From Candidatus Omnitrophota bacterium (GTDB lineage: Bacteria > Omnitrophota > Gorgyraeia > 2-02-FULL-51-18), in assembly GCA_945877765.1 (NCBI GenBank), contig CAMDWQ010000011.1:2641-66640 (forward strand): a stretch of 64,000 nt of DNA. The letters are read 5' to 3'. How positions within the stretch are numbered: the stretch's first letter is position 1; every line of letters begins with the position of its first letter. Below are positions 21,022 through 46,716 of the stretch, piece after piece. Below the pieces are notes generated by a model, which was given only the letters and a program-made list of their open reading frames with translations, had not been told where the DNA came from and did not search any database. Position numbers and translations under genes: made by a program.

Positions 21022-22390
21022 GTTAAGCAATCAAGACCCCTTGGAATTGTGGTCCAAGGCCCTGGCAAGCCTCCAAAAAGAGTTTGATTCCCAGCTTTTC
21101 GACCGTTGGCTTAAGCCTATTAAAATCAGAGAGTTGGACGAAAACGAAGTCGTCCTGATTGTCCGCGATGACTTTTTTAAATCCTGGGTGATGGATCACT
21201 ACCAGGACAAAATCTATTCCGCCTTGAAAAATATACTCAACAACCCCGAGATATCCATCCGCTTCATTATAGAGACGGAGGCGATTGAAAAAAGCCAGCC
21301 GCTTGGCGACACGATGCCAGCCCCTCGGAGCATGGCCCAAAATTTTACCAGCACTCCATCCATGCCAATAGAAAATGTGCTCAACACCAAATACACTTTT
21401 GATAGCTTTGTCGTGGGACCGTCCAATCGCTTCGCCCATGCCGCCTCGATGGCCGTCGCCGAATCGCCCGCTAAATCTTACAATCCTCTATTTATTTATG
21501 GACCCGTCGGTCTAGGCAAGACTCATTTGATGCAAGCGATAGGGCAAGAAGTGCTCAGAAGAAATCCCTCGAGCAAAGTGTTGTATATCACCAGCGAAAA
21601 ATTCACCAATCAACTCATCAACGCGATCAAAACCGGCACGACCGTCAAGTTTAGAGAAAAATACCGCTCCGTCGACTGCCTCCTTATCGATGACATTCAC
21701 TTCATCGCGGGCAAAGAAGCAACCATGGAAGAATTTTTTCATACATTCAACACGCTTTATGATTCCCACAAGCAAATCGTCGTCTCCAGCGACAAACCCC
21801 CCAAAGATATCAATAATCTCGAGGAGAGACTGGTGTCGCGTTTTGAATGGGGCTTAGTGACCGATATCCAGCCTCCTGATTTTGAAACCCGCACCGCTAT
21901 TTTGAGAAAAAAAGCAGAGCGCGAAGGCCTCCACATTCCCGATTCCGTCACTTTTTTTATCGCGGACAAAATTAAATCCAATATTCGTGAACTCGAGGGC
22001 GCACTGATCCGCGTCGTCGCTTATTCTAAGCTGGTAGGAAAAGAAGTGGATGAAATTGTAGCGCAAGACGTGTTAAAAGATTTGATTGTGGAGAACCAAA
22101 AGAAAATCACGGTTGACCTTATTCAAAGGAAAGTGGCAGAATACTTCGAAATACGGCCATCGGATATGACGGCCAAGCGGCGATCCAAGAGTGTGGCTTA
22201 CCCGCGGCACGTGGCAATGTATTTATCCCGTGAAATGACGGGTTTTTCTTTTCCTGAATTAGGAGAACATTTTGGCGGGCGAGATCACACTACTATTTTA
22301 CATGCGTGTGATAAGATAAAAAAAGATATCAAAAAAGAGCCCAAGACCAAAACTTTAATCGATAAGCTAATTGTTGAAATAAAAAAATAA
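21014..22390 (+). CDS. dnaA: chromosomal replication initiator DnaA
   Basis: 458-aa ORF with GTG start, Walker A GPVGLGKTHL and domain IV DNA-binding region. Confidence 0.95.
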   Translation: MDKLSNQDPLELWSKALASLQKEFDSQLFDRWLKPIKIRELDENEVVLIVRDDFFKSWVMDHYQDKIYSALKNILNNPEISIRFIIETEAIEKSQPLGDTMPAPRSMAQNFTSTPSMPIENVLNTKYTFDSFVVGPSNRFAHAASMAVAESPAKSYNPLFIYGPVGLGKTHLMQAIGQEVLRRNPSSKVLYITSEKFTNQLINAIKTGTTVKFREKYRSVDCLLIDDIHFIAGKEATMEEFFHTFNTLYDSHKQIVVSSDKPPKDINNLEERLVSRFEWGLVTDIQPPDFETRTAILRKKAEREGLHIPDSVTFFIADKIKSNIRELEGALIRVVAYSKLVGKEVDEIVAQDVLKDLIVENQKKITVDLIQRKVAEYFEIRPSDMTAKRRSKSVAYPRHVAMYLSREMTGFSFPELGEHFGGRDHTTILHACDKIKKDIKKEPKTKTLIDKLIVEIKK

Positions 22391-22600
22391 TTTTACCTGT
22401 GATTAATTGTGGATAAGTTTACGCTTTTAAGTTTTAGTTCTACAGGTTGTTGATAACCATCTATTTATCCACAGGTTATAGTATTTGTAAGTCTTTTATT
22501 TTTAAGTGGTTATAAATTTTATGCTGAATTCACAAACTCTACTACTATTACTGTTTTAATTGAGAATGTTAAATAATATAAAGCTAGGGGTTTACTATTC
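22391..22600. promoter_or_regulatory. probable oriC (DnaA-box cluster plus AT-rich unwinding region) in the dnaA-dnaN spacer
   Basis: TGTGGATAA at 22408-22416, perfect TTATCCACA at 22465-22473 and weaker tgataacc. An AT-rich tract follows at 22490-22590. Confidence 0.55.
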
Positions 22601-23713
22601 ATGAAAATAAATACAATTAAGGAAGAATTATTAAAAGGAATTCAGACCGTACAAAATGCGGTAAGCAGTAAAAATACATTACCCATTCTTTCCCATGTTT
22701 TATTAGAAGCAAAGAAAGGCGGTATATTTCTCACCGCCACTGATCTTGAAATTGGGATATCGATGAAAGTAGGTGGTGAAGTCATCGAGGAAGGTGCGAT
22801 TACGATCCCAGCGCGTAAATTTAGTGAGATCATTAAAGAATTACCTTCTCAACAACCCATTTATATTTCAGTGAAGAAGACTCAATCTATTACAATCGAA
22901 TCAGGAAAAAGTTATTTTCGTTTAGTGGGTTTATCAAAAGATGATTTTCCTCAACTACCTGATTTACAATCCATTAATCCTAAAGAAATAGATATCGTTA
23001 AAATTCCGCAAAAAAATCTAAAAAACATGATTCAACTTACCGCCTTCGCGATGAGTCATGATGAAACGCGGTATGTATTGAATGGAATATTATTTAATTT
23101 TAAAGATAAAATATTAAAATTAGTTGCCACTGATGGGAGAAGGCTCGCGGTGATCGAAAATGAAATTTTAGTTTCAGGAAATTTTCGGCGAGACGTGATT
23201 CTCCCAATGAAAACCATTCAAGAATTAAGCCGCAACTTAACCGAAGAGGGAGAAGTAATTTTTTATTTCAAACAAAACCAACTCCAGATTAATGTCGGCG
23301 CTATTAATATCACTTCTCGTTTAATTGAAGGCGAATATCCCAATTACGATCAGGTAATTCCAAAAAAAATAAAAGAAGAATTAAAACTAGGTACTCAAGA
23401 TTTTCTCCAAGCCACAAGACGCGCGAGTATTTTAACCAATCAAGATTCACAGTCGATCAAGATCAATCTCATTAAAGACCGGATGATTATTACCAAGAAT
23501 ACTCCCGATTTAGGGGAAGTCCGTGAAGAGATTGAAGTAAATTATAAAGGTGGTGAATTAACGATTGGTTTTAATCCCGTCTTTTTAATTGATGTGTTAA
23601 AAAATATTGAGGATGAAAGTATTCACTTTGGATTTATTGATCCCGAAAAGCCGGCAGTGATCCGTTGTGGTGAAAATTATACGTATATTGTTCTGCCGAT
23701 GCAGGTCAGCTGA
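22601..23713 (+). CDS. dnaN: DNA polymerase III beta sliding clamp
   Basis: 370-aa ORF with three-domain clamp architecture (MKINTIKEELLKGIQTVQNAV...). Confidence 0.95.
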   Translation: MKINTIKEELLKGIQTVQNAVSSKNTLPILSHVLLEAKKGGIFLTATDLEIGISMKVGGEVIEEGAITIPARKFSEIIKELPSQQPIYISVKKTQSITIESGKSYFRLVGLSKDDFPQLPDLQSINPKEIDIVKIPQKNLKNMIQLTAFAMSHDETRYVLNGILFNFKDKILKLVATDGRRLAVIENEILVSGNFRRDVILPMKTIQELSRNLTEEGEVIFYFKQNQLQINVGAINITSRLIEGEYPNYDQVIPKKIKEELKLGTQDFLQATRRASILTNQDSQSIKINLIKDRMIITKNTPDLGEVREEIEVNYKGGELTIGFNPVFLIDVLKNIEDESIHFGFIDPEKPAVIRCGENYTYIVLPMQVS

Positions 23714-23872: not shown

Positions 23873-26715
<2,843 letters not shown>

Positions 26716-26801: not shown

Positions 26802-29800
26802 ATGGCCGAACAGCAGAAAAATTCTTATACAGCGAATGAAAAAATAAGATCCGTTTTCATCGAGCAGGAGATGAAGACGTCCTATCTAAATTATTCAATG
26901 AGTGTCATCGTCGGTCGCGCTCTGCCGGATGTCCGTGACGGTTTAAAGCCCGTGCATCGCCGCATTCTTTTCGCGATGAAAGAGCTGGGTCTCGACCACA
27001 GCCGCTCGTATAAAAAATCCGCTCGTATCGTCGGAGAAGTCCTCGGTAAATATCATCCGCATGGCGATACCGCCGTGTATGACACGATGGTGCGCATGGT
27101 CCAATATTTTTCACTGCGTTATCCGCTGGTTGACGGCCAAGGTAACTTTGGTTCAGTAGACGGCGACAGCGCGGCGGCGATGCGTTATTGCGTGACTGGG
27201 GATACGCTCGTGGTCACAGACAAGGGTCTTGTTCCTATTGCGGATATATCGCCCGACCAGTCTGAGGATATCTCGATCAAGATTCTTTCTCGTGATAAAA
27301 AAGTCAATAGCGCCGCCAAATGGTTTGACAGTGGAAAGCACCGGACGCTCAAGGTAACCACAAAAGGTGGCTATGAAATTAAAGCCACCACGAATCATCC
27401 TCTGCTTGTATGGGCGGGCGGAGAAGATGGCAGGCCCGGGTTTGAATGGAAACTATTAGGGAAGCTGAGCCCAGGGGATGTGGTCGTCATCGACCGAAGC
27501 GATGATCTTCTGTGGCCCCAAGAGTATGTGGACACAAAATCTTTTTGGCCGGAGGTTAAGTCTACCCGAATCGTTGAAAAAACACTGCCGGTGGTTTTAA
27601 ACGAAGATCTCGCTTCTCTTTTGGGCGCTCTTGTCGCCGAAGGCACGATCAAAGAAAACAAAATTGAATTTTGCAACAGCGATGAGGCGTGGCTCAACGA
27701 CTTTGATGAAGAGTGGCGGAGAACATTTCCCGATTGTCGTCTTCATTCATTTAAGAGAAAGCCAAGTTCGTACGGCAAAAAAAATTATTTCACCCGAGAG
27801 ATTCACTCCCGACATTGCGTTAAGTTTTTAAGGGCGATCGGATTAGAGCCTGTTCGTTCCAAGGATAAAACGGTACCGGATTTAATATTTCGTTCTCCGC
27901 GCCGTGTGGTGGCGGCATTTTTAAGGGCTTATTTTGAGGGTGACGGCGGTGTGACCTCCAGTGGGAAAAAGATGGTCGAGCTTTCTTGTGTGTCGGTAAG
28001 CGAAAAACTGATAAGTCAGATTCAGGTGATACTTCTAAGATTTGGCATTGTTTCCGCCAAAAGGTATGATTCCTACCGTAAAACTTACAAGCTTTACATA
28101 CGCGGGCTTGAAAACTATAGGGCGTTTCAAAAAGAAATAGGATTTATTTCCACGAGGAAAAATACCCTTTTAAATTCTGTGATCGAATCGTATCACAAAG
28201 TCTGCTCATCCACCGATTATGTGCCGTTTTTGAGTGATTTTGTGCGTTCCCATGCGGGGGACGATTCGACATGGAGCGCCAAAGAATTTGCGTTGAAGAA
28301 CAATTTTGACAGATACAACAATCTTTCCGAAAAAGGCGACCGTGTCATGTTGTCGGTGGCCGTTGAAGAGCGGACTCATGTACAAACACTTTTTGAAAAT
28401 CTGCTTAACTACCGCTATTATTTCGACCCCATTGCCAAAATTGAAGACAATGGAATCCAGACCGTTTATTCTCTGCGCGTAGACAGTGCTTGTCATTCAT
28501 TTGTCGCCAATGGATTTATAAATCACAATACCGAAGCACGCCTTGCCGGCATCACCGACGAAATCCTGCGCGATATCGATAAAGAGACCGTCAACTTTGC
28601 CCCCAATTTTGACGAGAGCTTGGAAGAGCCAACACTTCTTCCGGCAACACTGCCCAATCTTTTGTGTAATGGCTCCAGCGGTATCGCCGTCGGTATGGCG
28701 ACCAATATTCCTCCGCACAACTTGACCGAAGTTTGCGATGCCATTGCCGCGACCATTGAAAATCCTGAGATTCAGACCAAGGAATTGATGAAGTATATTA
28801 AAGGTCCCGATTTCCCGACGGGTGCTACGATTTGCGGCACCGAAGGAATCAAGTCGGCTTACGAGACAGGCCGCGGCATCATTAAGATTCGCGCCAAAGC
28901 AAGCATTGAAGAGATTCGCGGAAGCCGCGAAGCGATTGTTGTCACCGAGATCCCTTATCAGGTCAACAAATCCAATCTCATTGAAAATATCGCTGACTTA
29001 GTAAACAGCAAAAAAATTGAAGGTATTTCCGACGTGCGCGATGAGTCCGACAAGGACGGAATGCGCCTGGTTATTGATCTTAAGCGCGACGCTAATTCGC
29101 AAGTCATTTTGAATCAGCTTTACAAGCACACGCAGATGCAAAATACATTTGGTATTATTTTGCTGGCACTTGTTGACGGAAGCCCCCGCGTGTTGAAGCT
29201 TAAAGAAATCATCATCGAGTACATCAAGCACCGCAAGGTAATCATCACGCGCCGCACGATATTCGACCTGGCCAAAGCCAAAGACCGCGCGCACATCGTT
29301 GAAGGCTTGATGAAAGCCGTCGACATCCTCGACAAAATTATTAAAACCATCCGCGGGTCCAAGACCCCGGCCGAAGCCAAAGTCGCCTTGGTGGAAAAAT
29401 ATGAGTTTTCCGAGCGCCAAGCACAGGCCATTTTGGAAATGCAGCTGCAAAAGCTCACCGGCCTTGAAATTCACAAGCTTGAAGATGAGTTCAAAGAGCT
29501 TTTAAAGAAAATCGCTTATTTTGAATCGATCCTCAATTCTGAAAAGAAAGTCCTCGAGATCGTGAAGGAAGAGCTCGCGGATCTCAAGAAAAAATACGGC
29601 GACGACCGCCGCACGGACATCTCGCGTTCAATCGATCTAGACATGAACATGGAAGATTTGATTGCCGACGAAGATGTCGTCGTCACGATTAGCCACCAAA
29701 ATTACGTCAAGCGCCTGCCGGTTACCACTTACCGTAAGCAAAAACGCGGGGGAGTCGGCGTAGGCTCAGGCGGCATCGAAGAAGATTTTGTGGAGCATCT

Positions 29801-30629
29801 TTTCATCGCGTCCACGCATGACACGCTCATGCTTTTCACCTCCAAAGGAAAAGCTTTCACGATTAAAGTACACGAGTTGCCCCAGGCCAGCCGTATTTCC
29901 AAGGGCAAATTCATCGCCAACTTTGTGTCTCTGTCTCAGGGAGAAAAGATTACCTCCTATATTCCTGTCCGGAAATTCGAAGAGGGTCAGTACCTGGTCA
30001 TGTGCACCAAGCTTGGTCAGATCAAAAAATGCGAACTGACGGATTTTGAAAACACACGCCGCAGCGGCATCATTGCTATCGGCTTAGATCCAAAAGATGA
30101 GCTCATCATGGCCGCTCTGACCGACGGCAAAGAAGAGATCGTCATCGCGACCCGTAAGGGCAAAGCCATCCGCTTCCCCAACAATGACGTCCGCAGCATG
30201 GGCCGCAACGCCGGCGGTGTGCGAGGCATCACTCTTGAAGATAAGGATTATGTTATCGGCATGGAAGTCGTCGACAAAAAAGCCAATCTTTTAACCGTCA
30301 CCGAAAAAGGTTTCGGCAAGCGTTCCGAAGTCGAAGAATACCGAGTCACCGGCCGCGGCGGCAAAGGCGTCACCAACGTCAAAGTCACCGACAAAAACGG
30401 CGAAGTCGTCGGCATGAAGTGCGTCACCGAGAAGTATGACTTAATGATTATGACGCAAACCGGCATGGTGGTAAGATGTTCAGTCAAAGACATCCGGGAG
30501 ACCGGCCGTGTCGCGCAAGGTGTGCGCCTCATTAACTTGAAGAAGGATAACGACAAAGTAGTCAGCATCACCTCCGTAGAGCCCGAAGACGACGGCGCCG
30601 CGGCAGCACCCGAAAAAGAACTCGTCTAA
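26802..30629 (+). CDS. gyrA: DNA gyrase subunit A, interrupted by an intein
   Basis: 1275-aa ORF with the GyrA N-terminus. The conserved AAMRYTEARL motif is split as AAMRY|C...HN|TEARL. Extein length is 828 aa. Confidence 0.95.
27189..28529 (+). mobile_element. GyrA intein (447 aa) with LAGLIDADG homing-endonuclease domain
   Basis: Begins CVTGDTLVV at residue 130 and ends VANGFINHN, followed by Thr(+1). Internal blocks LLGALVAEG and [11 protein letters not shown]. Same insertion site as mycobacterial GyrA inteins. Confidence 0.85.
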
Positions 30630-30635
30630 ATTTTA

Positions 30636-30710
30636 GACCCCATCGTCTAGCCTGGCTTAGGACATTACCCTTTCACGGTAGTAACACGGGTTCGAATCCC
30701 GTTGGGGTCA
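30636..30710 (+). tRNA. tRNA-Glu (TTC)
   Basis: GACCCCATCGTCTAGCCTGGCTTAGGACATTACCCTTTCACGGTAGTAACACGGGTTCGAATCCCGTTGGGGTCA has a 7-bp acceptor stem, anticodon loop CTTTCAC (TTC) and T-loop TTCGAAT. Confidence 0.85.
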
Positions 30711-31893: not shown

Positions 31894-32259
31894 ATGCTAA
31901 GTAGGCTATGGATCCGATCTCTTGTCCGGCGAGCGGATCTATGGTATATTTACATTGTAAATATATTGAATGAGATCCGATTCGCTTGGGATGAAGATAA
32001 GAACAAGCTCAACAAAATAAAGCATCATGTTTCTTTCGAAGAAGCCAAGAATGTTTTTTATGATGAATACGCGCTCCAATTTTATGACCCTGAGCATTCT
32101 CACTCAGAAGAAAGGTTTATGCTGCTGGGAATAAGTGATCGGCTTAGAGTGCTCTTTGTCTGTCATTGTTATTTGGAGAAAGATTCTATCATTCGAATAA
32201 TATCCGCACGCCGGGCAACCGCCAAAGAAAAGGCGTACTACGAAGGACAAATAAAATGA
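31894..32259 (+). CDS. brnT: BrnT-family (DUF497) ribonuclease toxin
   Basis: IRFAWDEDKNKLNKIKHHVSFEEAKNVFYD...ERFMLLG matches the BrnT F.WD..K...N..KH.V.F.EA..VF pattern. Confidence 0.65.
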   Translation: MLSRLWIRSLVRRADLWYIYIVNILNEIRFAWDEDKNKLNKIKHHVSFEEAKNVFYDEYALQFYDPEHSHSEERFMLLGISDRLRVLFVCHCYLEKDSIIRIISARRATAKEKAYYEGQIK

Positions 32260-32468
32260 GAAAAGAATACGATTTAACCAAACTAAAGAGCCGCCGTAAT
32301 CCATACGCCAAGGCGCTCAAAAGGCAAGTGACGATCCGTATTGGAAACGACGTGATCCATTATTTTAAAGAAATGGGCAACAAAACAGGAGTGCCCTATC
32401 AAAGCCTGATCAACTTATACCTGAGAGATTGCGTGGATTCTCATCGTGTGTTGAAGTGGGCTGCGTAG
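32256..32468 (+). CDS. brnA: BrnA-family antitoxin
   Basis: ATG overlaps the brnT TGA in an ATGA context. MRKEYDLTKLKSRRNPYAKALKRQVTIRIGNDVIHYFKEM... is a CopG/RHH-like BrnA fold. Confidence 0.65.
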   Translation: MRKEYDLTKLKSRRNPYAKALKRQVTIRIGNDVIHYFKEMGNKTGVPYQSLINLYLRDCVDSHRVLKWAA

Positions 32469-32722: not shown

Positions 32723-34183
32723 TTGAAACTGCTTAAAGCACTCGTTATAGGAATTCTTTTTTTCCAACCGGTCTATGCCTCGCAAGCCGACATTCAAAAT
32801 ATTCCATCGTCCGAATATTTCTCCACCGCTCTCACTGAAATTTCCCAGGCGAAAGAATCGATCTATGTTGTCATGTATCTTGTCTCTTTCGACCCCGCCA
32901 ACCCCAATACCAAAGTCTCCCAGCTTTTAAAAGCGCTGGTCGATGCCAAAAATAGGGGAGTCTGGGTCCAAGTTATTTTTGATCAAACGATTGATTTTGC
33001 GGAAGACCAGCGGCCTGCGGAGGGATATAGAAATAAGAATGCCCCGGCGTTTGAATATTTACGGGCCAATCAGGTGGAGGTTTTCTATGATACCGAAGGG
33101 ACTTATACGCATGCCAAGGCGATTGTCATTGATCGGGAGATTTCGCTATTTGGCAGCAGCAACTGGTCCCGGGCGGCGCTGACTAAAAATAATGAAGTCA
33201 ATGCGATGGTGCGTTCATCCGAATTTGCGCAGGATCTTATTGATCAATGGGGCAAGATTGAACTTCAGCCCAATGTTGCGGTGGTAGCCGCGCCTTCTGT
33301 CAAAATCCCGCGGGATTTTCTGACCAATCCTGCGTTGTTCCAGGAAATGATCTCTCACGGCGACGAACGCGCTTTGGATGTCTATCTTTACCTCTTGAGC
33401 CAGTACCGCCAAACGGCGGATTCAAAAGTGATTCTGGATTACGACGACCTTGCGTCTTCTCTTGCCATGAGCGGTATGGCACCCGTAGATTATCGCCGGC
33501 AGATTACCAAGACCCTTTCAAAGCTAAAGGGAAAATACCGTCTGATTGATTTCCAAAACCCGACTCATGGCCAAAACGCCCAAATCACGCTGAAAGCTCC
33601 GGAGGCCGCCGATTCTTTTGATCTACCACTCACTTACTGGAAATATCACTGGCCCCAAAAACTTTCATTTCCCGCCAAGGTTATGTATCTCATTTTAATT
33701 TCTAATACCGATCTGGCGTCACCCAGTTTTACTATTTCAAGAGAAGGCCTCGCTAATGAATTTTCCATTTCAAAGTCTTTGATTTCAGACGGCACCAGAG
33801 ACTTAAGATTCCAGAACCTGCTCGACATTCAATATTCCCCCATGGACCGCGAAGATTTTTCCGACAGAAAGCCCAATAGCTACACTCCCACCCCGCTGTA
33901 TGACCCGTCAGCCCTTCAAGAATCCATAGCCGCTCTCGGCCAAAAAGAAGGACAGGCCAAACTCGATCGCGCCCTGAATGCCGCCTCCCAGGTTTTCGCC
34001 CAAAACAATCTATCTGCGATCAAATCACTCCTCGACCTCGAATCCCAATACGGCCCCGCCATCATCCACCAAGCCGCCCAAAAAATAGGCGAAAAAAAAT
34101 CCGACAACCCCAAACGATCCATCGCCTATCTAATCGCCACCATCAAAAGCATGGCCCGAATATACCGTACCCCGTCCCCATGA
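32723..34183 (+). CDS. secreted phospholipase D-family (HKD) nuclease-like protein with long C-terminal extension
   Basis: Signal peptide MKLLKALVIGILFFQPVYASQA, then the HKD motif HAKAIVIDREISLFGSSNWS (H.K....D...GS.N). The last codons are supplied by a MITE terminal repeat. Confidence 0.65.
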   Translation: MKLLKALVIGILFFQPVYASQADIQNIPSSEYFSTALTEISQAKESIYVVMYLVSFDPANPNTKVSQLLKALVDAKNRGVWVQVIFDQTIDFAEDQRPAEGYRNKNAPAFEYLRANQVEVFYDTEGTYTHAKAIVIDREISLFGSSNWSRAALTKNNEVNAMVRSSEFAQDLIDQWGKIELQPNVAVVAAPSVKIPRDFLTNPALFQEMISHGDERALDVYLYLLSQYRQTADSKVILDYDDLASSLAMSGMAPVDYRRQITKTLSKLKGKYRLIDFQNPTHGQNAQITLKAPEAADSFDLPLTYWKYHWPQKLSFPAKVMYLILISNTDLASPSFTISREGLANEFSISKSLISDGTRDLRFQNLLDIQYSPMDREDFSDRKPNSYTPTPLYDPSALQESIAALGQKEGQAKLDRALNAASQVFAQNNLSAIKSLLDLESQYGPAIIHQAAQKIGEKKSDNPKRSIAYLIATIKSMARIYRTPSP

Positions 34184-37489: not shown

Positions 37490-40027
37490 GTGGACAAATT
37501 TAATATACTGATCGCTGCTCGCGCCAAACACACTCCGTTCAAAAATTTGGCTTTGGTAAGCCCTTTCGGAATTGTAACCAATCATTGGCTTGTTCTTATA
37601 AACGTTCTGCTTTCATGTGAGGAGGATTTTAGCGATCCTAATATTGATTTATTGAATGAACTGGCTGTGGGTGACTTAATTCAAATTGATGGTAAACGAG
37701 TCTGTTTCGGGGGAATTAGAGAAACGGATCGCGGGCGCTCGATAGGATTTTATGAAACTGGGAAAAAGGGCAAGGCAGGACCATGTTATACATGGTTATC
37801 TGAAAAAGATATCCGGGGAAGAATAGCGCCGTACGCGGGGATGGCCAAAAACCCCCAGCGCTTCACAGGTAAAAAAGCACGAGCCGCAATAGGACACAAT
37901 TTATTCGCAGCTTTACACGGAATCAATGAATTCCAACCGAATATCAAGACTTCATCATTAGTTATAACGGAAAAAAAGTCTTACATAGAGGAATTGCAGA
38001 ATTTAGAAATTCATTTAGCTTATGACGTTAGTACGCTTAAGTTTCCCTTTTGTGAAGCGATCCCTGCTGCGGCATACTCTACCAACAATAAATTTAGTCG
38101 TATAGCGGCTAAGAAGAACGATAATCGACCTCTTTTGCTCAAAATTGTTTCGTCTCCGGAAGTTGGAATAGAGTTATGCCAAAACGATAAAAATATACAA
38201 ACGGTAATTATAGACGGCGAATCAAAAATATTACGAAATTTTCTTGAGCTTAAGAGGATAAAAGAGATAGAGTCAGTAAAAAATATTTACATAATTCTTT
38301 CTAATAACATAGATCAGAAATCACTAAGAGAATTGCAACAGCTAGGTTTCTTTATTTGGAAGTGGAATGAAGAGTTTATTCTAAGCATAGGTACGGAGTC
38401 TTTGCCAGATAATCGTCAAAATGGCAATATCGATACGGGGGCCATTCAGAATAAACTAATCAGTAACCTGTTAAACAAGACATCAGAAATGGTGGAAGTG
38501 GATTACCCTTCCAAGGAAGCAAAAGCCTTAATCAATGAGTATTCAGAGATATTATTCTATTTAAAAGATTTTATCGATGAGCCGCACGCTGGAGAAATTT
38601 TTAGAGAGTTCATTTGCCAGGGTTATGGGTATCGCAGTTTTATACTTTCGCCGCTGGCAGGACTTCCATCCTGCCATGACCGTGTTAATAGATATATCGA
38701 ACAACTAAAGCTCCTTATACCCGTCTTAAAGGAGCTCAATAAAGCCACTGCCTTACACCAAAGATTGGATAGACTAGCGATAGCGATTGATCGGTTTAAA
38801 GATTTATTTTGTCTCGGTGTTAACCAAAAAAATGAAATGATAAAAAAACATCTTCATTCGGAAAGGACCGGGATCGGATTGGTATTAAAGAACTTACCGG
38901 CTAATAGCGTTCTAGATGAATTCGGCAAATTTATCGGCAAAGGCCTTTCATATCGATTTCTAAAGCTCTCCGACTTAAAAAGTTTTCACCCCTTCGATAG
39001 CTTGTTGTTTACTGGGTGGCTGGGAAGCAACCATCCCTATTACTTAAATTGCCCTTTAGCACCTAAGCATTTATATTTCTTGTACGACATAGAGAAAAAA
39101 ATTTATGAAATCATGCAGAGCCGGCAGCAATTGCATAACTTTCCTGAGCCCTTGGAAAGAGTTGCAGCTCTTTTAGATCTAACTCCAAGCGAGGTATTAT
39201 CGCTGGCGCCATCGTTAGCCCCTTCCAACCTTGCTTCAGTTGAGGAATTTGTTAAAAATAAAAGAGAAGTCAATTTAAACGATCTCTATGACGCTATCTG
39301 CTCAAAGAGAATCCCGTCATATTCTGGAACCGGAGAGATCGGAGAAGAATTGCTCCCTTCAAAATGCATTTTTTTTGAAGATGATCAATACGGCTTCTTT
39401 TCTGAAAATTACATAGCCAAAGTGTTGGATAGATCTAAGGAGGAAGTAATCGATAAGGATCTTAGCGTGCTCGCTGAGGGAGATGAGCTTTTGTTTTTGG
39501 AAGACTCCAAGAGAGATTTATTTCAGGTCATGGCTATAGAACTTCATAAAAAAATGCCGGATAGGATAGAAGAAGCAAAGATTTGGAGGGATAGTCTTAA
39601 ACGATTAAAAACAGAAAAGAATTACTCTGTTGAGAAACTTAATTCTGTACTTAGAGAAAATGGAGTTATTCAAGAGATCTCGACTTTGAAGGGATGGGTA
39701 AGTGATAAAGAAATGATAGCACCTCAATCACTTGACCGCCTGATAGACGTTCTCTCGACTCTATTAAATGATGCGACTATAGGGTCTAAAAAGAAATTAA
39801 TCATAACCGCTTGCAGACGAATTCGTGCGTCACATAACATTTTGGGAAGGTATCTGGCGAAACAATTAATTGGATCGTTTAATAAAGGCGCTAACACGGT
39901 ACAGCAAGATTTGGCAGCAAGCGCCGAAGAATTGAGGAAACACGTATATACGCTGCAAATAAATAAATTGTCCGATGACGTTCAGGCTGTTCCGGTATCG
40001 ATTCTTAACAAGGTATTTGAGCTATAA
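37490..40027 (+). CDS. 845-aa protein of unknown function, first gene of the candidate defence operon (DruF/DrmE-like by position and size only)
   Basis: No motif recognised by eye. Its stop (TAA) is directly followed by the ATG of the next gene. Confidence 0.4.
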   Translation: MDKFNILIAARAKHTPFKNLALVSPFGIVTNHWLVLINVLLSCEEDFSDPNIDLLNELAVGDLIQIDGKRVCFGGIRETDRGRSIGFYETGKKGKAGPCYTWLSEKDIRGRIAPYAGMAKNPQRFTGKKARAAIGHNLFAALHGINEFQPNIKTSSLVITEKKSYIEELQNLEIHLAYDVSTLKFPFCEAIPAAAYSTNNKFSRIAAKKNDNRPLLLKIVSSPEVGIELCQNDKNIQTVIIDGESKILRNFLELKRIKEIESVKNIYIILSNNIDQKSLRELQQLGFFIWKWNEEFILSIGTESLPDNRQNGNIDTGAIQNKLISNLLNKTSEMVEVDYPSKEAKALINEYSEILFYLKDFIDEPHAGEIFREFICQGYGYRSFILSPLAGLPSCHDRVNRYIEQLKLLIPVLKELNKATALHQRLDRLAIAIDRFKDLFCLGVNQKNEMIKKHLHSERTGIGLVLKNLPANSVLDEFGKFIGKGLSYRFLKLSDLKSFHPFDSLLFTGWLGSNHPYYLNCPLAPKHLYFLYDIEKKIYEIMQSRQQLHNFPEPLERVAALLDLTPSEVLSLAPSLAPSNLASVEEFVKNKREVNLNDLYDAICSKRIPSYSGTGEIGEELLPSKCIFFEDDQYGFFSENYIAKVLDRSKEEVIDKDLSVLAEGDELLFLEDSKRDLFQVMAIELHKKMPDRIEEAKIWRDSLKRLKTEKNYSVEKLNSVLRENGVIQEISTLKGWVSDKEMIAPQSLDRLIDVLSTLLNDATIGSKKKLIITACRRIRASHNILGRYLAKQLIGSFNKGANTVQQDLAASAEELRKHVYTLQINKLSDDVQAVPVSILNKVFEL

Positions 40028-41746
40028 ATGGAAATACGATTAATACCACCCTATTTAAGTAGCTCGGTTAAAAGCAACGCGGAAAAAAGAACGTTTGCTG
40101 CAATCCAGTTAATTTCTGCGCCAGCTTACTGTTTTCATTCGCTAAATCTGCCTGAGAAAATAAAGAGAAAACCCGAATGCGAAATTGATTTTCTTTTCCT
40201 AAGCGTCAGGGGAATTATGTGTCTTGAGGTAAAGGGTGGATCTGTACGTCGAGTTGACGGGGTGTGGCAATTTGAAAATCGGTTTGGCGAGGTGACAAAG
40301 AAAATCGAGGGCCCATTCGAACAAGTTCAGAACGCGATGTACGCATTAAAACAACGAATAAAGAATAAATATGGAGCTGATTCAAACCTATTGAAATGTT
40401 TATTTGGGTACGGAGTCATATTTCCAGATACTGATTTTAAAGATGCATCAGCCGAATGGGACCTTGAAATTGTATGTGACAAGATTCGATTCAATAGACC
40501 CATTTCTGACTATATAACAGCATTACATGAATATTGGGCTTTAAAGAAACCTCAATCAAGGCCCCTTACGAACAATGAAGTGGATGAGTTGGCTCAATAT
40601 CTGAGGGGTGATTTTCACTGTGTTGTCCCATTAAAAGATTATATCGGAAACATCAACGAAGAGCTCCTGTCTCTAACCGGTGAACAGCTTAGTCTTCTAG
40701 CGGGACTCGACCAAAATCCTAGGCTAATCATTAACGGGCCGGCCGGGAGTGGCAAGACTCTCATGGCTGTAGAGAAAGCTAAATGTGAGGCGGCAAGGGG
40801 ACAAAAAACGCTTCTAATTTGCTCTAGCGATATTCTAGCCGAGCATCTCCAGCATATGTGTTCGGAATATATCAATCTCTCGGTTACAAATATATTTGCG
40901 CTGTTTAAATCAATTCAAACTTGCGGAGATTTATCCGATATAAAGAAACCGATCCGTGAGAATGAATATAAAATAGATTTACCCCTTATTCTCAAACGAC
41001 AAAAGTTGATTGATAGCGCACATCTATACGACTCGATAATAGTTGATGAAGCCCAAGATATTTTAAAAAGTACGTTTCTAGAAGTTTTAAATGGGTGTCT
41101 TAAGGGAGGATTTCAGAACGGTAGATGGACGCTTTTCTACGACAAATTCCGTCAAGCCGGTCTTTACGGTGATTCCGACAGCGGCGTTGCGTCTATTCTG
41201 GAAAAATTCAAGCCAACCCTATTCAATCTAGGTACGAACTGTAGGAATACCAAGAAAATTGCCGAAGAAACGGAAATGATAACGAATTATATTTTCCAGA
41301 AAATCCTTCACGACGGAGGTCGAAAATCTCGGGTTGAGTTTTATAAGGATATTGAAGAAAGGAACAGCACCCTTTTGTCAATTATGTCAGACTTGGCCAA
41401 ACAAGATATTTCCAAGGGTAGACAAATAATATTAACGCTTGAAAATGAAACTAATTTTTTAAATTCGGTGTCAGGGATACACGGTTATAAGTTTCAATCA
41501 TTGTCCAAATTCGACCAATTTAAGTCTGATCAACATCTCAATTTGGTTTGCGAAGCAAAGAGGTTCAAGGGACTTGAGAGTGATATAGTTATTATTCCCG
41601 AAATAAAAAGTTTTGATCAAACGGTGGAGTTATATGTAGCTATGACACGGGCAAAAGCGATGCTTTTTCTACTTATCGATTCCAGCTTGAAGAAGCAATA
41701 TCAAGAGCGCTTTAAACTGTACGTGGAAAGGAAAGTCTTAATATGA
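40028..41746 (+). CDS. NERD-domain + SF1 (UvrD/AAA_19-like) helicase/nuclease
   Basis: N-terminal ECEIDFLFLSVRGIMCLEVKGGSV (NERD-type EVKG motif). Walker A GPAGSGKTLMAV, Walker B IVDEAQDIL, C-terminal YVAMTRAKAMLFLLID (SF1 motif VI). The ATG follows the previous stop with zero gap. Confidence 0.6.
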   Translation: MEIRLIPPYLSSSVKSNAEKRTFAAIQLISAPAYCFHSLNLPEKIKRKPECEIDFLFLSVRGIMCLEVKGGSVRRVDGVWQFENRFGEVTKKIEGPFEQVQNAMYALKQRIKNKYGADSNLLKCLFGYGVIFPDTDFKDASAEWDLEIVCDKIRFNRPISDYITALHEYWALKKPQSRPLTNNEVDELAQYLRGDFHCVVPLKDYIGNINEELLSLTGEQLSLLAGLDQNPRLIINGPAGSGKTLMAVEKAKCEAARGQKTLLICSSDILAEHLQHMCSEYINLSVTNIFALFKSIQTCGDLSDIKKPIRENEYKIDLPLILKRQKLIDSAHLYDSIIVDEAQDILKSTFLEVLNGCLKGGFQNGRWTLFYDKFRQAGLYGDSDSGVASILEKFKPTLFNLGTNCRNTKKIAEETEMITNYIFQKILHDGGRKSRVEFYKDIEERNSTLLSIMSDLAKQDISKGRQIILTLENETNFLNSVSGIHGYKFQSLSKFDQFKSDQHLNLVCEAKRFKGLESDIVIIPEIKSFDQTVELYVAMTRAKAMLFLLIDSSLKKQYQERFKLYVERKVLI

Positions 41747-44700
41747 TCCCAAATCCTTTAAATCATGAACAAGTTAGAACGGATTTGTTGGATTATATGC
41801 GCAAAGAGCTAGTTGGCCCTCAATCAGACGATGAAATTCTTGACGGCGATAACGTGCCTCAGATCGATCACTACATAGCAGGTGTTCTTTACCCTCAATC
41901 TAAAACCGACTCAGAAGATGATCGATTAGCAACTCAGCCTGATATTAGCGAAGAAGATGCAGATATTGCCGATGATCTAGAAACTAAAGTATACGGGTTA
42001 TCCAATATCTATATGCCTGCATCAATGGGTATCAGTTGCCAGCTAGCCATACCAGCCAAAGAAGGTGTTCAATACAAAGTTACGTGCGCCCGGTATGAGT
42101 TACAGAAGACAGAGATCAAGAATGCTAGCGGGCGTTCCACGCATTGGGTGCGCATACCGATTAAGAAAGAGGGTTCAATAACTCTTCAAGAATTGGCGAA
42201 AGGGAAAGTCACCATAGAAATCGAGAAAGGTCTCGAGCTTGTTTGTATTTTTAAACCCGATAAGGGGTACCTTACAGTAAGTTTAGTTAACGAAAATGAG
42301 TACGATGTTTCCGTAGAAGAGAAAGTGAAACCTAGAAAACTAACTCCAAACTGTTTTTTCCAGTCAGAGTTGGTTCTAACCGGTGCCGGCGACGATCATT
42401 TTCTTCCAAGAAAACCGTATGAATGTCCGGATGGCAAAGAACGAACATACGAAATGTTGTTTCGAAATAAGCCTACCTTTGCCATTGGTCATGGCTGCGC
42501 TGCCGACTGGGATAAAAGCCGCTCAAATAGAACGAACTCGGTAAAAACGACTACGTTTCCGGTTGAATCTGTGCCAAGCGTCGATTTTGAAGTTATTCAG
42601 GATAAAAAAATTCTTCAGGTACTGGACATGAAACGACTTTCAGAGTCTCTTCATCAAAAGGAAGAAATTTTGTCTGATTTGCGCCAATTTGCCAAAGAAT
42701 ACGATCTATGGATAGACCGAATCGAGACGAGCGACGTCGACCCGGTATTTTACGACGTTGCTAAAGAAAATATTATTAAATGCAGAATGTCGTTCGAGCG
42801 GATAGAGGCAGGAATTCAAAAGTTAGAGGATGACCCAGAAGTTTTTGAAGCGTTCGTTCTCATGAATAAAGCGATGGTTCTGCAGCGGCTTGGCCATGAC
42901 CCAAAAGAACCAAGCACCTGTCGCTGGAGACCCTTCCAGCTTGCATTTATCTTACTGAGTGTCGTCGGTTTAATTGATGATCAGTCATCGGACAGAAATA
43001 TAGTTGATTTAATTTGGTTTCCTACCGGAGGCGGAAAAACAGAAGCATATCTTGGGATTACAGCTTTCATTATTTTCTACCGAAGAATCAAATATAAAGC
43101 GTTGGGGGGCGGTACTGCCGCAATCATGCGCTACACTTTAAGGCTTTTAACAACTCAACAACTTCAACGCGCCACTAGGCTAATGTGCGCCTGCGAAATT
43201 ATTAGAAAACAAAATTCAATAAGATACGGTAGCGAGGTAATCAGTTCGGGAATTTGGGTAGGGGGCGATACAACTCCCAACACTTCGTCTGTTTATCGAG
43301 AGCAATTAGAAGACGGTGAATTTGTAAAAATTCTTTCAATGTGCCCGTGGTGTGAATCGGCGCTTCAATACAGTAAGAGGACAAATCCGAAAATATATTG
43401 TAAAAATGAAAATTGTAAATTCTCAAAAGGCTTACCAATATTATTTGTGGATGATGATATATACGAGAACCCACCCACTTTCTTGGTTAGCACTGTCGAT
43501 AAATTTGCTAATCTTTCTTTAAAAGCGGACCCAAAAAATAAGAAAAAGGATGCCGCCCGGATATTTGCTGCGGATGCGGGCAACCAAAAAATAGCCCCCT
43601 CCTTAATTATTCAGGACGAATTACATTTAATATCAGGTGCCTTAGGTACTTTAGTTGGATTATTCGAGATCGTTATAGAAGAGTTGTGCTCACTCAAAAA
43701 AATTAAGCCAAAAATTGTCGCAGCGACAGCGACCATAAGAGGAGCGGAGGAACAAACAAAAAATCTTTTCAATAGAGAAGTATTTCAATTTCCATCGCCT
43801 GGGATAAGTATTGAAGATTCGTTCTTTGCCGTGGAAAAAACTTCAAAGGAAAATCGGTTATACGTTGGAGTACAGGCATCTGGGCACACCTTTACGACAA
43901 CAGAAGTCAGGGTATTTTCAGCATTATTACAAGGAATCTATGAAATTAAATCGGCATATGAGGAGGGAAAAACTCCAGAGGAGATGGCTGCCGTGCAGGA
44001 ACTCATAGACCCGTACTGGACGATGATTGCCTATTTCAATAGCGTTAGACAACTAGGTAAGTGTCATAGCCTGCTGGATCAAGATATTGCAACGCAAATG
44101 GTGGAGTTATCAAAGCGATCCGGCTCTCGCAGACGTTTTATCCCGGACAGGGGCATTAGAGAAATGACCGGAACAAGAAAAACGAAAGATATTGCAGAAA
44201 TTTTAGCCGAACTATTTTATCCACTAAATAGCAAGAAAGCGCTTGATATAGTTCTGACCACAAATATGTTTTCCGTTGGGGTAGACATATCGCGTTTGGG
44301 AGCTATGGTAATTACAAGCCATCCAAAAACAAATGCAGAATATATTCAGGCATCCAGTCGGGTTGGCAGAAAATATCCCGGAATTATTTTTACGGTTTAC
44401 GATTTTTCACGATCGAGAGACCGCTCTTACTATGAGAATTTTGTCGGGTACCATCGGGCACTCTATAGGCATGTCGAGGTTTCTAGCTTAACACCTTTTT
44501 CAATGGCGTCTGTAGATAGAGGGATGAAGAGCGTCATTATCTCCTTATTGCGACAAAGATTTCGTTCGATGGGAGTTGATGATTTAAACACACTTTCTGC
44601 AGATAAACGAGACAAGGTGATTGAAGAGATAAGAGGACTGATTCTTAAAAGAGTGAACGCAGTTGATCAATCCGAATTACGTATGGTTACTTTAAAGCTT

Positions 44701-46716
44701 ACCAGTTGGTTTGTAGAGCTAAAAGAATTCTTGTCCTCACGGGCAAACGCAGAATATAAAGAGCTAATCTATAACCCATCTCTGGGCTCGCCGAGGCAGC
44801 CGTTCCAATGGGATGTTTTATACTCAATGAGGAATGTGGATGAAAGCGCCCGAATCAAAGTAGGAGTTATCAATGGTCAAGAAATATGGGATGAGGACAA
44901 ATCGTGGAACGAAATAAGAAAAAATCAATTAATTGTTCCTTTTGGCCCGGGAGCTATTGTTGAGCTCGAGAACTCAAAAAGCGCGCTCGTTTCTAGATGG
45001 CACGGCAAGGGCGACCCGGTAAGCGATATGCCAGATGAACGATTTATTCAACGCCTATCTCGGTTAAGAGTGAAAGAATTAGTAGCTCCGCCATCGGCAA
45101 AACAAAAGCCGATAGGGGCAGTTCTATTTCCCGCATGGGGTTTTTGTAAAAGCTGTAGAAAATTCGGCGAAATAAAAAATACATTTAAATTTGATGCCCG
45201 CAATGGCAAAGAACGGTGGTCTTGTGAGTGTAGTGGAAGGTCAAAATTATCGGACGCTAAAAAATTTATGAATGCAGTCGTGCAAATAAAATTCATCGCC
45301 GTGTGTTCCGACGGGCATATAGACGACTTACCTTGGGGCGAGCTTCTTCATAAAAGCCCTAGCTATATGAATGACGGAGCTCTCCATCAGTTTAAGTACG
45401 AGTCCTTCGGCGGCTCTCTTGGTGAAGAAAGCTTGTCATGTTCATGCGGAATTGCTCCGTTTCGACTCAATCAGTTGAAAAAGGCAATAACGGGACAACT
45501 TTGTAAAAATCGTCCGTTAACGGACTACAGCACGCAAGAAGGCGTTTGCCCTCGTAATATCGAAATGAAGCATAGGGGAGCATCAAGTACGTACTTTCCC
45601 GTGGTTAGAACTTCGATATATTTGCCACCGCAGGATGATGCTGGTCTTAATAAAGTTTTGGTTAGGCTAAGAAACACCTTAGAGGATGCAGGGGGCACAA
45701 TTCCTGAGGATCAAAAAAGAATAATAGTAGAAAATAACCTTATCCAAATTGGTGTTGTTAAAGAGATCGCATGGCCCACATATCTCCGATTTATTGAACC
45801 CGTTGACATCGCTCAGGCGACAAATGTTGACGAAGAGATTAAGTACAGGGAAGAAGAGTATAAAGTATTCTCCGCGCCCGCAGTCAATCAGCAAGTTTTT
45901 CTAAAAGATCTAGTTTTGGATGAGGTTAGCCCAAGCGTATTGCGGTCTAAAAAATATCCTGAAGAAATTTCTGATATGAAATTAATTAAGACCTTAAAGG
46001 AAACTAGGGCAATTCTGGGCTACACGCGAATCTATCCTATCGACTTTGAAGAAGGTGAGGGCGCAGAGGGTAGGCGCGCTGGTATGATTTCATTGATCAA
46101 AAATTATAAGATTCCTGCCATTGAGGTTCGAGGCGAAGGCATATTCTTTAGACTGAATCCAAGCATGATTAGTGATTGGGCAAAAAAATCAAACGTTGTC
46201 AAACGAGTTAGAATTATTAACGAACACGAACGACTCTCGGGCAGACAATATGGAGTTGGCGTAAAAAATGTTACACCTGCTTTTATCTTAATTCACACAT
46301 TAGCCCATGCCTTAATTAGATATTTGGGAATGGAATGCGGTTACGGGACGGCTTCCCTGCGTGAAAGAATATACTGTCATCAGGTTGAAGGAGATATTAG
46401 AATGGCCGGCGTGATGATTTATACTGCATCCGGAGACGCGGCAGGGACTCTCGGAGGGTTAGTCCGGCAGGGCAGGGAAGACCGCTTTCCGACTTTGTAT
46501 AGGAATGCGATCCATTCAATGGATTGGTGCTCTTCTGACCCGCTTTGTATTCAATCCAAAGGGCAAGGAAGAGACGGTTTGAATGTGTCGGCCTGCCATG
46601 CTTGCGCACTATTACCTGAGACTAGTTGCGAGTTTCAAAATGTTTACTTAGATAGAGCGCTTTTAAACGGCACCATTGATGACCCCAAAATTGGTTTTTT
46701 TAAAAGGTATGAATAG
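41743..46716 (+). CDS. 1657-aa SF2 DEAH-type helicase with Zn-ribbons and a Cys-rich DUF1998-like C-terminal domain (DruE/DrmA-DrmB-like)
   Basis: Motif I WFPTGGGKTEAY, motif II IIQDELHLISG, motif VI QASSRVGRK. Zn-ribbon CPWCESALQY...CKNENC. Cys-rich mid region (CKSCRKF...CECSG, CSDGH, CSCG). C-terminal MDWCSSDPLCIQS...ACHACALLPETSCEFQNVYLDRALL. Overlaps the previous gene by 4 nt. Confidence 0.65.
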   Translation: MIPNPLNHEQVRTDLLDYMRKELVGPQSDDEILDGDNVPQIDHYIAGVLYPQSKTDSEDDRLATQPDISEEDADIADDLETKVYGLSNIYMPASMGISCQLAIPAKEGVQYKVTCARYELQKTEIKNASGRSTHWVRIPIKKEGSITLQELAKGKVTIEIEKGLELVCIFKPDKGYLTVSLVNENEYDVSVEEKVKPRKLTPNCFFQSELVLTGAGDDHFLPRKPYECPDGKERTYEMLFRNKPTFAIGHGCAADWDKSRSNRTNSVKTTTFPVESVPSVDFEVIQDKKILQVLDMKRLSESLHQKEEILSDLRQFAKEYDLWIDRIETSDVDPVFYDVAKENIIKCRMSFERIEAGIQKLEDDPEVFEAFVLMNKAMVLQRLGHDPKEPSTCRWRPFQLAFILLSVVGLIDDQSSDRNIVDLIWFPTGGGKTEAYLGITAFIIFYRRIKYKALGGGTAAIMRYTLRLLTTQQLQRATRLMCACEIIRKQNSIRYGSEVISSGIWVGGDTTPNTSSVYREQLEDGEFVKILSMCPWCESALQYSKRTNPKIYCKNENCKFSKGLPILFVDDDIYENPPTFLVSTVDKFANLSLKADPKNKKKDAARIFAADAGNQKIAPSLIIQDELHLISGALGTLVGLFEIVIEELCSLKKIKPKIVAATATIRGAEEQTKNLFNREVFQFPSPGISIEDSFFAVEKTSKENRLYVGVQASGHTFTTTEVRVFSALLQGIYEIKSAYEEGKTPEEMAAVQELIDPYWTMIAYFNSVRQLGKCHSLLDQDIATQMVELSKRSGSRRRFIPDRGIREMTGTRKTKDIAEILAELFYPLNSKKALDIVLTTNMFSVGVDISRLGAMVITSHPKTNAEYIQASSRVGRKYPGIIFTVYDFSRSRDRSYYENFVGYHRALYRHVEVSSLTPFSMASVDRGMKSVIISLLRQRFRSMGVDDLNTLSADKRDKVIEEIRGLILKRVNAVDQSELRMVTLKLTSWFVELKEFLSSRANAEYKELIYNPSLGSPRQPFQWDVLYSMRNVDESARIKVGVINGQEIWDEDKSWNEIRKNQLIVPFGPGAIVELENSKSALVSRWHGKGDPVSDMPDERFIQRLSRLRVKELVAPPSAKQKPIGAVLFPAWGFCKSCRKFGEIKNTFKFDARNGKERWSCECSGRSKLSDAKKFMNAVVQIKFIAVCSDGHIDDLPWGELLHKSPSYMNDGALHQFKYESFGGSLGEESLSCSCGIAPFRLNQLKKAITGQLCKNRPLTDYSTQEGVCPRNIEMKHRGASSTYFPVVRTSIYLPPQDDAGLNKVLVRLRNTLEDAGGTIPEDQKRIIVENNLIQIGVVKEIAWPTYLRFIEPVDIAQATNVDEEIKYREEEYKVFSAPAVNQQVFLKDLVLDEVSPSVLRSKKYPEEISDMKLIKTLKETRAILGYTRIYPIDFEEGEGAEGRRAGMISLIKNYKIPAIEVRGEGIFFRLNPSMISDWAKKSNVVKRVRIINEHERLSGRQYGVGVKNVTPAFILIHTLAHALIRYLGMECGYGTASLRERIYCHQVEGDIRMAGVMIYTASGDAAGTLGGLVRQGREDRFPTLYRNAIHSMDWCSSDPLCIQSKGQGRDGLNVSACHACALLPETSCEFQNVYLDRALLNGTIDDPKIGFFKRYE

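Follow-up and report, generated by a model that had tools for sequence, protein, structure and literature searches.

GyrA inteins outside the mycobacteria have already been described: Novikova et al. counted 50 GyrA inteins in all, in Actinobacteria, Aquificae, Chloroflexi, and Proteobacteria (PMC4760082). The mycobacterial ones, whose hosts belong to the Actinomycetota, comprise the mini-intein of Mycobacterium xenopi (Mxe; structures 1am2 and 4oz6), which lacks an endonuclease entirely, and those of the Mycobacterium leprae type, which bear one. They begin with Cys1 and end with a penultimate His and a terminal Asn, followed by Thr as the first residue of the C-extein (Thr+1). The primers for deletion of the M. 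leprae GyrA intein end with ...ATGCGTTAT and start with ACCGAGGC... (PMC6658535). In a second set of described systems, namely the archaeal VMA inteins TliVMA (7qss and 7qsu) and PhoVMA (7qst) together with PI-PfuI (1dq3), PI-PkoII (2cw7), and PI-SceI (1vde), a LAGLIDADG endonuclease is nested within a splicing (HINT) domain. Here, we analyzed a DNA stretch of 64,000 nucleotides (the window; contig CAMDWQ010000011.1, assembly GCA_945877765.1, positions 2,641 to 66,640 of the forward strand) from a member of Candidatus Omnitrophota, whose gyrA gene carries an insert of 447 amino acids with the same four residues at its junctions and, in contrast to the Mxe intein, with an endonuclease. The insert adds a member to the known GyrA inteins and no new mechanism. 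Our literature search turned up no publication that deals with gyrase inteins of Omnitrophota and nothing specific for the candidate phyla radiation or DPANN.

The insert in gyrA and its splicing residues

The gyrA precursor of 1275 amino acids is encoded on the forward strand by a single open reading frame (ORF; 26802..30629, stop codon counted), for which Pfam returned DNA_topoisoIV in two stretches (E = 2.5e-161) and six DNA_gyraseA_C blades. Reading of the DNA placed the end of the N-extein (26802..27188, forward strand, 129 residues) at GDSAAAMRY, the last residue being the catalytic Tyr; Met-Arg-Tyr (atg-cgt-tat) ends at 27188 and is followed directly by Cys1 (tgc, 27189-27191), giving the junction RY/C (a slash marks a junction here and below). 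At the other end, His446-Asn447 (cac-aat) ends at 28529, and Thr+1 (acc, 28530-28532) opens the C-extein (28530..30629, forward strand), which is colinear with the intein-less alleles L004 and L005 described below. The insert itself (27189..28529, forward strand), delimited by the DNA, Pfam, sequence matches in the PDB, and an AlphaFold model, comprises 1341 nt, that is, 447 codons in frame, and lies between the catalytic Tyr and the Thr of AAMRY/TEARL, a site that we take to be the one named GyrA-a in InBase. Its excision in silico restored AAMRY-TEARL and a GyrA of 828 amino acids, the DNA across the site then reading ...ATGCGTTAT/ACCGAAGC; the M. leprae junction, ...ATGCGTTAT/ACCGA..., is identical to it to the nucleotide. 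An earlier sequence-only reading of this DNA had given the coordinates and the length of the insert, the split of AAMRYTEARL after Tyr, the Cys at the start and the His-Asn before Thr at the end, and had quoted several protein strings (the start CVTGDTLV, both LAGLIDADG blocks, and the C-terminal end). Checked codon by codon, the positions and the length turned out to be exact, the junction residues were as described, and every one of the strings was present.

The window derives from a metagenome, and the G+C content (GC) is lower in the core of the homing endonuclease (HE; 0.43) than in the exteins (0.50), both of which would fit an assembly or binning chimera, or else a pseudogenizing insertion in a dead copy of gyrA. 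We regard this explanation as extremely improbable. Four contigs, which come from no fewer than three metagenome assemblies, encode an identical 1275-amino-acid protein (three of them, ERZ27280294 of 81 kb, ERZ27280197, and ERZ27280213, represent three different assemblies), so the insert is not an assembly artifact, and the chimera that the sequence-only reading had allowed for is excluded. The insert is, moreover, precisely in frame and has canonical junction residues, while a related genome, L008, shows the same gyrA-intein architecture with many synonymous differences. The gene sits within the conserved order dnaA-dnaN-dciA-gyrB-gyrA, and strong purifying selection acts on both exteins (nonsynonymous divergence, dN, of 0.02-0.06).

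The splicing domain was recognized by Pfam as Intein_splicing (PF14890; E = 3.2e-13, 50.2 bits against a cut-off of 35.8), the match covering residues 15-447 of the insert and being split around the endonuclease. In a phmmer search of the PDB, the top match was the Mxe GyrA intein 1am2 (E = 1.2e-23), which aligned in two stretches, query residues 2-104 and 399-447, corresponding to the N- and C-terminal splicing halves; the match is divided in this way because the Mxe intein is a mini-intein without an endonuclease. Among solved structures the Mxe intein is thus the best match, in keeping with the resemblance of the terminal splicing blocks to mycobacterial GyrA inteins claimed earlier. The N-terminal half (residues 1-105, 27189..27503, forward strand) aligns to Mxe residues 3-109 and contains block A with the N-terminal nucleophile Cys1 (27189-27191) and block B with T67-T68-N69-H70 (27387-27398), a T-x-x-H motif. 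The C-terminal half (residues 406-447, 28404..28529, forward strand) aligns to Mxe residues 151-199 and contains block F, from 28464, and block G, NGFINHN, ending at 28529.

We then determined the conservation of these residues in an alignment of 97 full-length inteins from the same gyrA site (a smaller version comprised 17 sequences). Cys1, His70, Ser428, His436, His446, and Asn447 were invariant in all 97, N69 was kept in 96, and position 67 was always T or S, so that the splicing blocks are conserved on proper alignment. The +1 residue was Thr in all 75 junctions found with a pattern that allowed T, S, or C. The class-1 residue set with a Thr+1 nucleophile is complete in the window intein, and its competence for splicing seems likely in view of these conserved residues and of established intein chemistry. 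Taken with the endonuclease described in the next section, the sequence and the structural model make it highly probable that the insert is a canonical class-1 intein with a nested two-motif LAGLIDADG homing endonuclease.

Two other assignments were rejected. A class 3 intein, with its WCT triplet and a block F Cys nucleophile, is at odds with the presence of Cys1 and with block F position 4 (V-Y-S-L), which is Ser428 in 97 of 97 inteins. A bacterial intein-like (BIL) domain was ruled out by the canonical Cys1...HN/T junctions and, likewise, by the Ser at block F position 4.

A further conserved residue of the family is Cys435 (28491..28493), located just before the block F His in D-S-x-C-H-S-F and kept in 93 of the 97 inteins. 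It sits at a different block F position than the class 3 nucleophile and is replaced by Asp solely in family members of the actinobacterial or mycobacterial type, from which the window intein differs in this respect.

The nested endonuclease and its predicted structure

The LAGLIDADG HE core occupies approximately residues 136-335 of the intein (27594..28193, forward strand), as delimited by Pfam, by alignment to TliVMA (7qsu), and by a fold match to I-DmoI. The Pfam family LAGLIDADG_3 (PF14528) matched residues 240-318 with E = 2.5e-21 (76 bits against a cut-off of 22.5), and the HE part of the insert matched by sequence the VMA inteins of Thermococcus and Pyrococcus as well as PI-PkoII, with E values of about 1e-16. 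Its two motifs are LLGALVAEG (residues 144-152, 27618-27644, forward strand), with the putative catalytic E151 at 27639-27641, and LRAYFEGDG (residues 245-253, 27921-27947, forward strand), with the putative catalytic D252 at 27942-27944. In each the acid is followed by Gly, and the two acids are 101 residues apart. Position 151 is E in 93 of the 97 inteins (A in two, Q in one), and position 252 is D in 92 and E in 2 (G in two, A in one); an acidic residue is kept at each position in at least 94 of the 97.

An AlphaFold2 model of the intein, computed with 24 homologs as input, had a mean pLDDT (predicted local distance difference test score) of 93.1 and a pTM (predicted template modeling score) of 0.92. 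When the whole chain was compared with the PDB by Foldseek, the best match was TliVMA (E = 7.8e-26; template modeling [TM] score of ~0.7), followed by PhoVMA, PI-PfuI, PI-PkoII, and PI-SceI. Single domains matched the Mxe GyrA HINT domain (target TM score, TMt, of 0.83), I-DmoI (TMt of 0.65-0.68), and I-Tsp061I (0.67). The two LAGLIDADG-like blocks that had been taken for a homing endonuclease from the letters alone are therefore borne out by Pfam, the PDB sequence matches, the model, and the fold search. The likeness to the Tli, Pho, Pfu, and Pko inteins (TM scores of 0.6-0.7 to the model and E values down to 8e-26) is one of architecture, as these VMA and PI inteins are non-allelic, reside in other host proteins and at other sites, and share only 10-22% identity with the window intein.

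Between the HE core and the C-terminal splicing strands lies a helical region (residues 336-405, 28194..28403, forward strand), for which the model predicts helices at residues 348-354, 362-370, 376-389, and 392-408. Within it, D343, D374, and R375 are invariant in the 17-sequence alignment. This region might serve as a linker or as an accessory domain that binds DNA.

The constraint on the intein was estimated by comparing the window with L008. The dN of the intein was ~0.10, and that of the HE core, 0.087, was the lowest of all the intein segments; the synonymous sites were saturated (proportion of synonymous differences of 0.57-0.90), so the comparison of dN with synonymous divergence (dS) is qualitative only, dN being much below dS. 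Low dN against saturated synonymous sites points to an endonuclease region that has been under purifying selection.

Sister alleles, distribution, and spread

The spliced GyrA of the window is 81-84% identical to the GyrA of metagenome-assembled genomes (MAGs) named Candidatus Omnitrophica. Its nearest relatives are the GyrA proteins P0075 (94%), P0076 (92%), and P0077 (88%), whose lengths of 826-828 amino acids indicate that they have no intein; the 828-residue spliced product aligns with P0075 (828 amino acids) at 94% identity over 100% of the length, and P0076 has 827 residues. These closest relatives identify the host as Candidatus Omnitrophota, which agrees with the earlier impression that the locus is not mycobacterial. 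In the DNA of these relatives (L004 and L005), the intein-less gene is colinear with that of the window and in frame through the site (...GCGATGCGTTAT/ACCGAAGC...), the empty site of L004, around 4001+387, reading ...GCCGCCGCGATGCGTTAT/ACCGAAGCGCGCCTGGCC....

Among the 120 best GyrA matches, a homologous intein at the Tyr site was found in P0108 and P0124 only, both with inteins 57-58% and exteins 82-84% identical to those of the window. A scan of GTDB species genomes added L008, whose intein shares 85% of its amino acids and 75% of its nucleotides with that of the window, the exteins being 98% (N) and 91% (C) identical. In a neighbor-joining tree of the exteins, built from distances with bootstrap, the window (with intein), P0075 (without), L008 (with), and P0076 (without) formed one clade with 100% bootstrap. 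The intein is hence present in two of four sister alleles, and such patchy presence is what a homing cycle would predict.

Relatives of this intein are encoded by at least 564 GTDB species genomes (564 of the first 600 pattern matches). For the junctions and the cross-phylum comparison, we used the best 80 related loci among the matches listed. The exact junction RY/C...HN/T was present in 75 of the 80 by a strict pattern, and RY/C...HN/TE in 77 by a looser one. According to the record titles, the hosts of these loci are Patescibacteria groups, Woesearchaeota/Nanoarchaeota and other Archaea, Armatimonadota, Chloroflexota, Acidobacteriota, Bipolaricaulota, Atribacteria, and Omnitrophota. The Tyr-site inteins of these uncultivated lineages resemble that of the window in site, length (~430-452 amino acids), domain order, and conserved residues, and differ from it at the sequence level only, the identity being, within Omnitrophota, 85% for L008 and 57-58% for P0108 and P0124, and 38-57% for other phyla. 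The window allele is a distinct variant; none of the relatives listed from a different species is more than 85% identical to it.

The similarity of the inteins did not follow that of their hosts. Across phyla, identity to the window ranged from 38 to 57% for the intein and from 44 to 66% for the strongly constrained GyrA extein, and the two rankings differed: the Omnitrophota MAG L046 has an extein 66% and an intein 45% identical, while in L011 the extein is 51% and the intein 56% identical. This incongruence and the empty sister alleles support horizontal transfer of the intein, and thereby the spread suspected in the sequence-only reading. The consensus of the homing site across 77 hosts, ..GC.GC.ATGCG.TAT/AC.GAAGC, is conserved at the first and second codon positions, so that one endonuclease could find targets in distant genomes.

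In the sequence search, the Tyr-site GyrA inteins had E values from 1e-159 to 1e-49, whereas those of PhoH, clamp loader, RuvB, and dCTP deaminase, which came next, had 3e-34 or weaker. By this measure the window intein belongs to the allelic family of the GyrA active site that includes the mycobacterial GyrA inteins. The actinobacterial-type member P0040 (exteins GSPGNDPPAAMRY/.../TEARLTPLAME), a full-length homolog, aligns end to end with the window intein; the latter has 447 residues against ~420 for the actinobacterial type, the difference including an extra segment of ~23 residues after the N-terminal splicing domain (alignment columns 115-137). A mycobacterial origin was rejected: the intein of P0040 is only ~34% identical to that of the window, as opposed to 50-85% for the relatives from Omnitrophota, Patescibacteria, and Woesearchaeota, which makes the mycobacterial inteins distant cousins and not the likely donors. 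IMG/VR viral contigs scanned with the intein alignment yielded 228 relatives, all 24-35% identical, and no sign of a virus carrying this gyrA intein (the host genes of the matches were not read); since the gyrA inteins share 38-85% identity, the viral ones are taken to be non-allelic.

Several observations concern the hosts and the other inteins encountered in these searches. Outside Omnitrophota, the closest relatives among the matches listed come mostly from ultra-small, often symbiotic lineages of groundwater and sediment (Patescibacteria and Woesearchaeota/Nanoarchaeota), and Archaea with a bacterial-type gyrase are among the closest hosts. The titles of several third-party annotation (TPA) MAGs ("uncultured Planctomycetia" and "uncultured Gammaproteobacteria") look unreliable, as their GyrA exteins do not fit the names, and many GyrA-intein matches in the database are fragmented or labeled "partial." P0117, an Omnitrophica GyrA of 1295 amino acids, has no Tyr-site intein and carries an unrelated LAGLIDADG intein elsewhere (residues ~80-540), with the junction IVGE/C...VVHN/ inside the quinolone-resistance-determining region. 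The metagenomic GyrA fragments P0029, P0042, and P0060, some of them named Nanoarchaeota, contain two inteins only 11 residues apart, the first ending with ...VFVHN/S(I/V)DGD at a GNFG/S site and the Tyr-site intein coming next.

The intact motifs, together with the distribution and the signs of purifying selection, lead us to infer that the element homes, its LAGLIDADG endonuclease breaking both DNA strands of the empty site. The 1275-amino-acid precursor would be translated first, whereupon Cys1, aided by the block B T..NH residues, would form a thioester at the Tyr-Cys bond (N-S acyl shift). Attack of Thr+1 on this thioester (transesterification) would give a branched intermediate, cyclization of Asn447, aided by His446 and the block F His436, would release the intein, and an O-to-N shift would rejoin AAMRY-TEARL into the active 828-residue GyrA. 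The freed intein, with E151 and D252 as metal-binding acids, would then cut an intein-less gyrA at ...GCGATGCGTTAT/ACCGAAGC..., and repair from the intein-bearing copy would spread the element. The active-site peptide specified there hardly varies, and for this reason the element would be able to move between distant lineages.

Certain points count against this explanation. The four sister alleles lie at almost equal distances from one another (79-83% nucleotide identity), and the pairing of the window with P0075 has a bootstrap of only 77%, so the order of gains and losses is not fixed by the tree. No co-conversion tract was detected when the spliced window gene was compared with L004 and L005 in 60-nt and 100-nt windows; the identity was flat, ~0.75-0.9, and not raised at the junction, although the comparison is uninformative because the alleles are ~18% diverged. 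To this are added the qualitative reading of dN/dS imposed by synonymous saturation and the consideration that purifying selection on the HE region could come partly from keeping a fold of this essential protein that permits splicing, and not from nuclease activity.

These results leave room for an intein that still splices while its endonuclease is now inactive, a fixed and vertically inherited passenger, at a late stage of the homing cycle, retained only because an essential gene would be destroyed by imprecise loss. Decay of this kind does occur in the family, as the few members without a catalytic acid at position 151 or 252 demonstrate, and not only was a co-conversion tract missing, but no polymorphism was seen in the population of the window itself, the protein being identical on all four contigs. 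The window intein, however, retains both catalytic acids and both glycine-rich motifs, and its HE core has the lowest dN of the intein segments. The interleaving of presence and absence among four close sister alleles and the incongruence across phyla, which argues for continuing mobility in the family, also speak against this alternative. We therefore consider the inactive passenger a possible but distinctly less probable state of the element.

A different explanation would have the intein co-opted by the host as a conditional, for instance redox-sensitive, switch that delays gyrase maturation under stress, host selection being what retains it. Some other inteins, that of Mycobacterium tuberculosis RecA among them, are documented to splice conditionally (PMC11377839). 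With the intein adjoining the catalytic Tyr, a precursor that has not been spliced is bound to be inactive, and the conserved Cys435 beside the block F His might pair with Cys1. The same Cys may, however, be structural, and the sporadic distribution, with intein-less alleles in the closest relatives, indicates that the host does not need the intein. Such a switch thus appears quite unlikely. If it were true, redox state or stress would control whether gyrase matures in Omnitrophota and in the numerous lineages of Patescibacteria and DPANN with the same intein, and this gate would help explain why one allelic family has been kept intact, endonuclease included, across two domains.

Gene neighborhood and significance of the finding

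A tRNA-Glu(ttc) gene (30636..30710) begins 6 nt past the gyrA stop and marks a variable island downstream (to ~47800). The DNA that follows this tRNA gene differs among contigs with the identical GyrA, L001 carrying a PLD/SNF2 helicase and L002 a serine recombinase. In the window, the island contains BrnT/BrnA toxin-antitoxin genes (31894..32259 and 32166..32468) and genes for a PLD-like protein (32723..34183), a DrmE_C-like protein (37490..40027), a NERD-helicase (40028..41746), and a 1657-amino-acid helicase with an MZB/DUF1998 domain (41743..46716), which together look like a DISARM-like defense island.

Upstream of gyrA, the GC drops to 0.31-0.35 at 22200..23600 (dnaN and the dnaA-dnaN spacer), compared with 0.46-0.54 in the adjoining gyrB and gyrA, a marked compositional step within the conserved cluster of replication genes. 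The gyrB gene (24169..26715, 848 amino acids) encodes a segment of ~200 residues without a Pfam match, between the Toprim/hook part, which ends at ~572, and the C-terminal domain, which starts at 775. Since GyrB of the intein-less relatives has 845-846 amino acids, this segment is probably a feature of the lineage rather than a mobile insert.

With the present results, Omnitrophota join the phyla known to host an intein at the GyrA active site, and the family is revealed to be far wider than the mycobacterial examples suggest, spanning at least 564 species genomes of Bacteria and DPANN Archaea. Gene callers and the pipelines that use GyrA as a taxonomic marker should accordingly expect precursors of 1270 amino acids. 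For the Mxe GyrA intein, which is important in biotechnology, the family is a source of numerous natural variants, and it also provides candidate rare-cutting nucleases. Its inteins are as similar to one another as the gyrases that host them, making the family a clean example of an element using an invariant string of active-site codons to cross phyla and domains.

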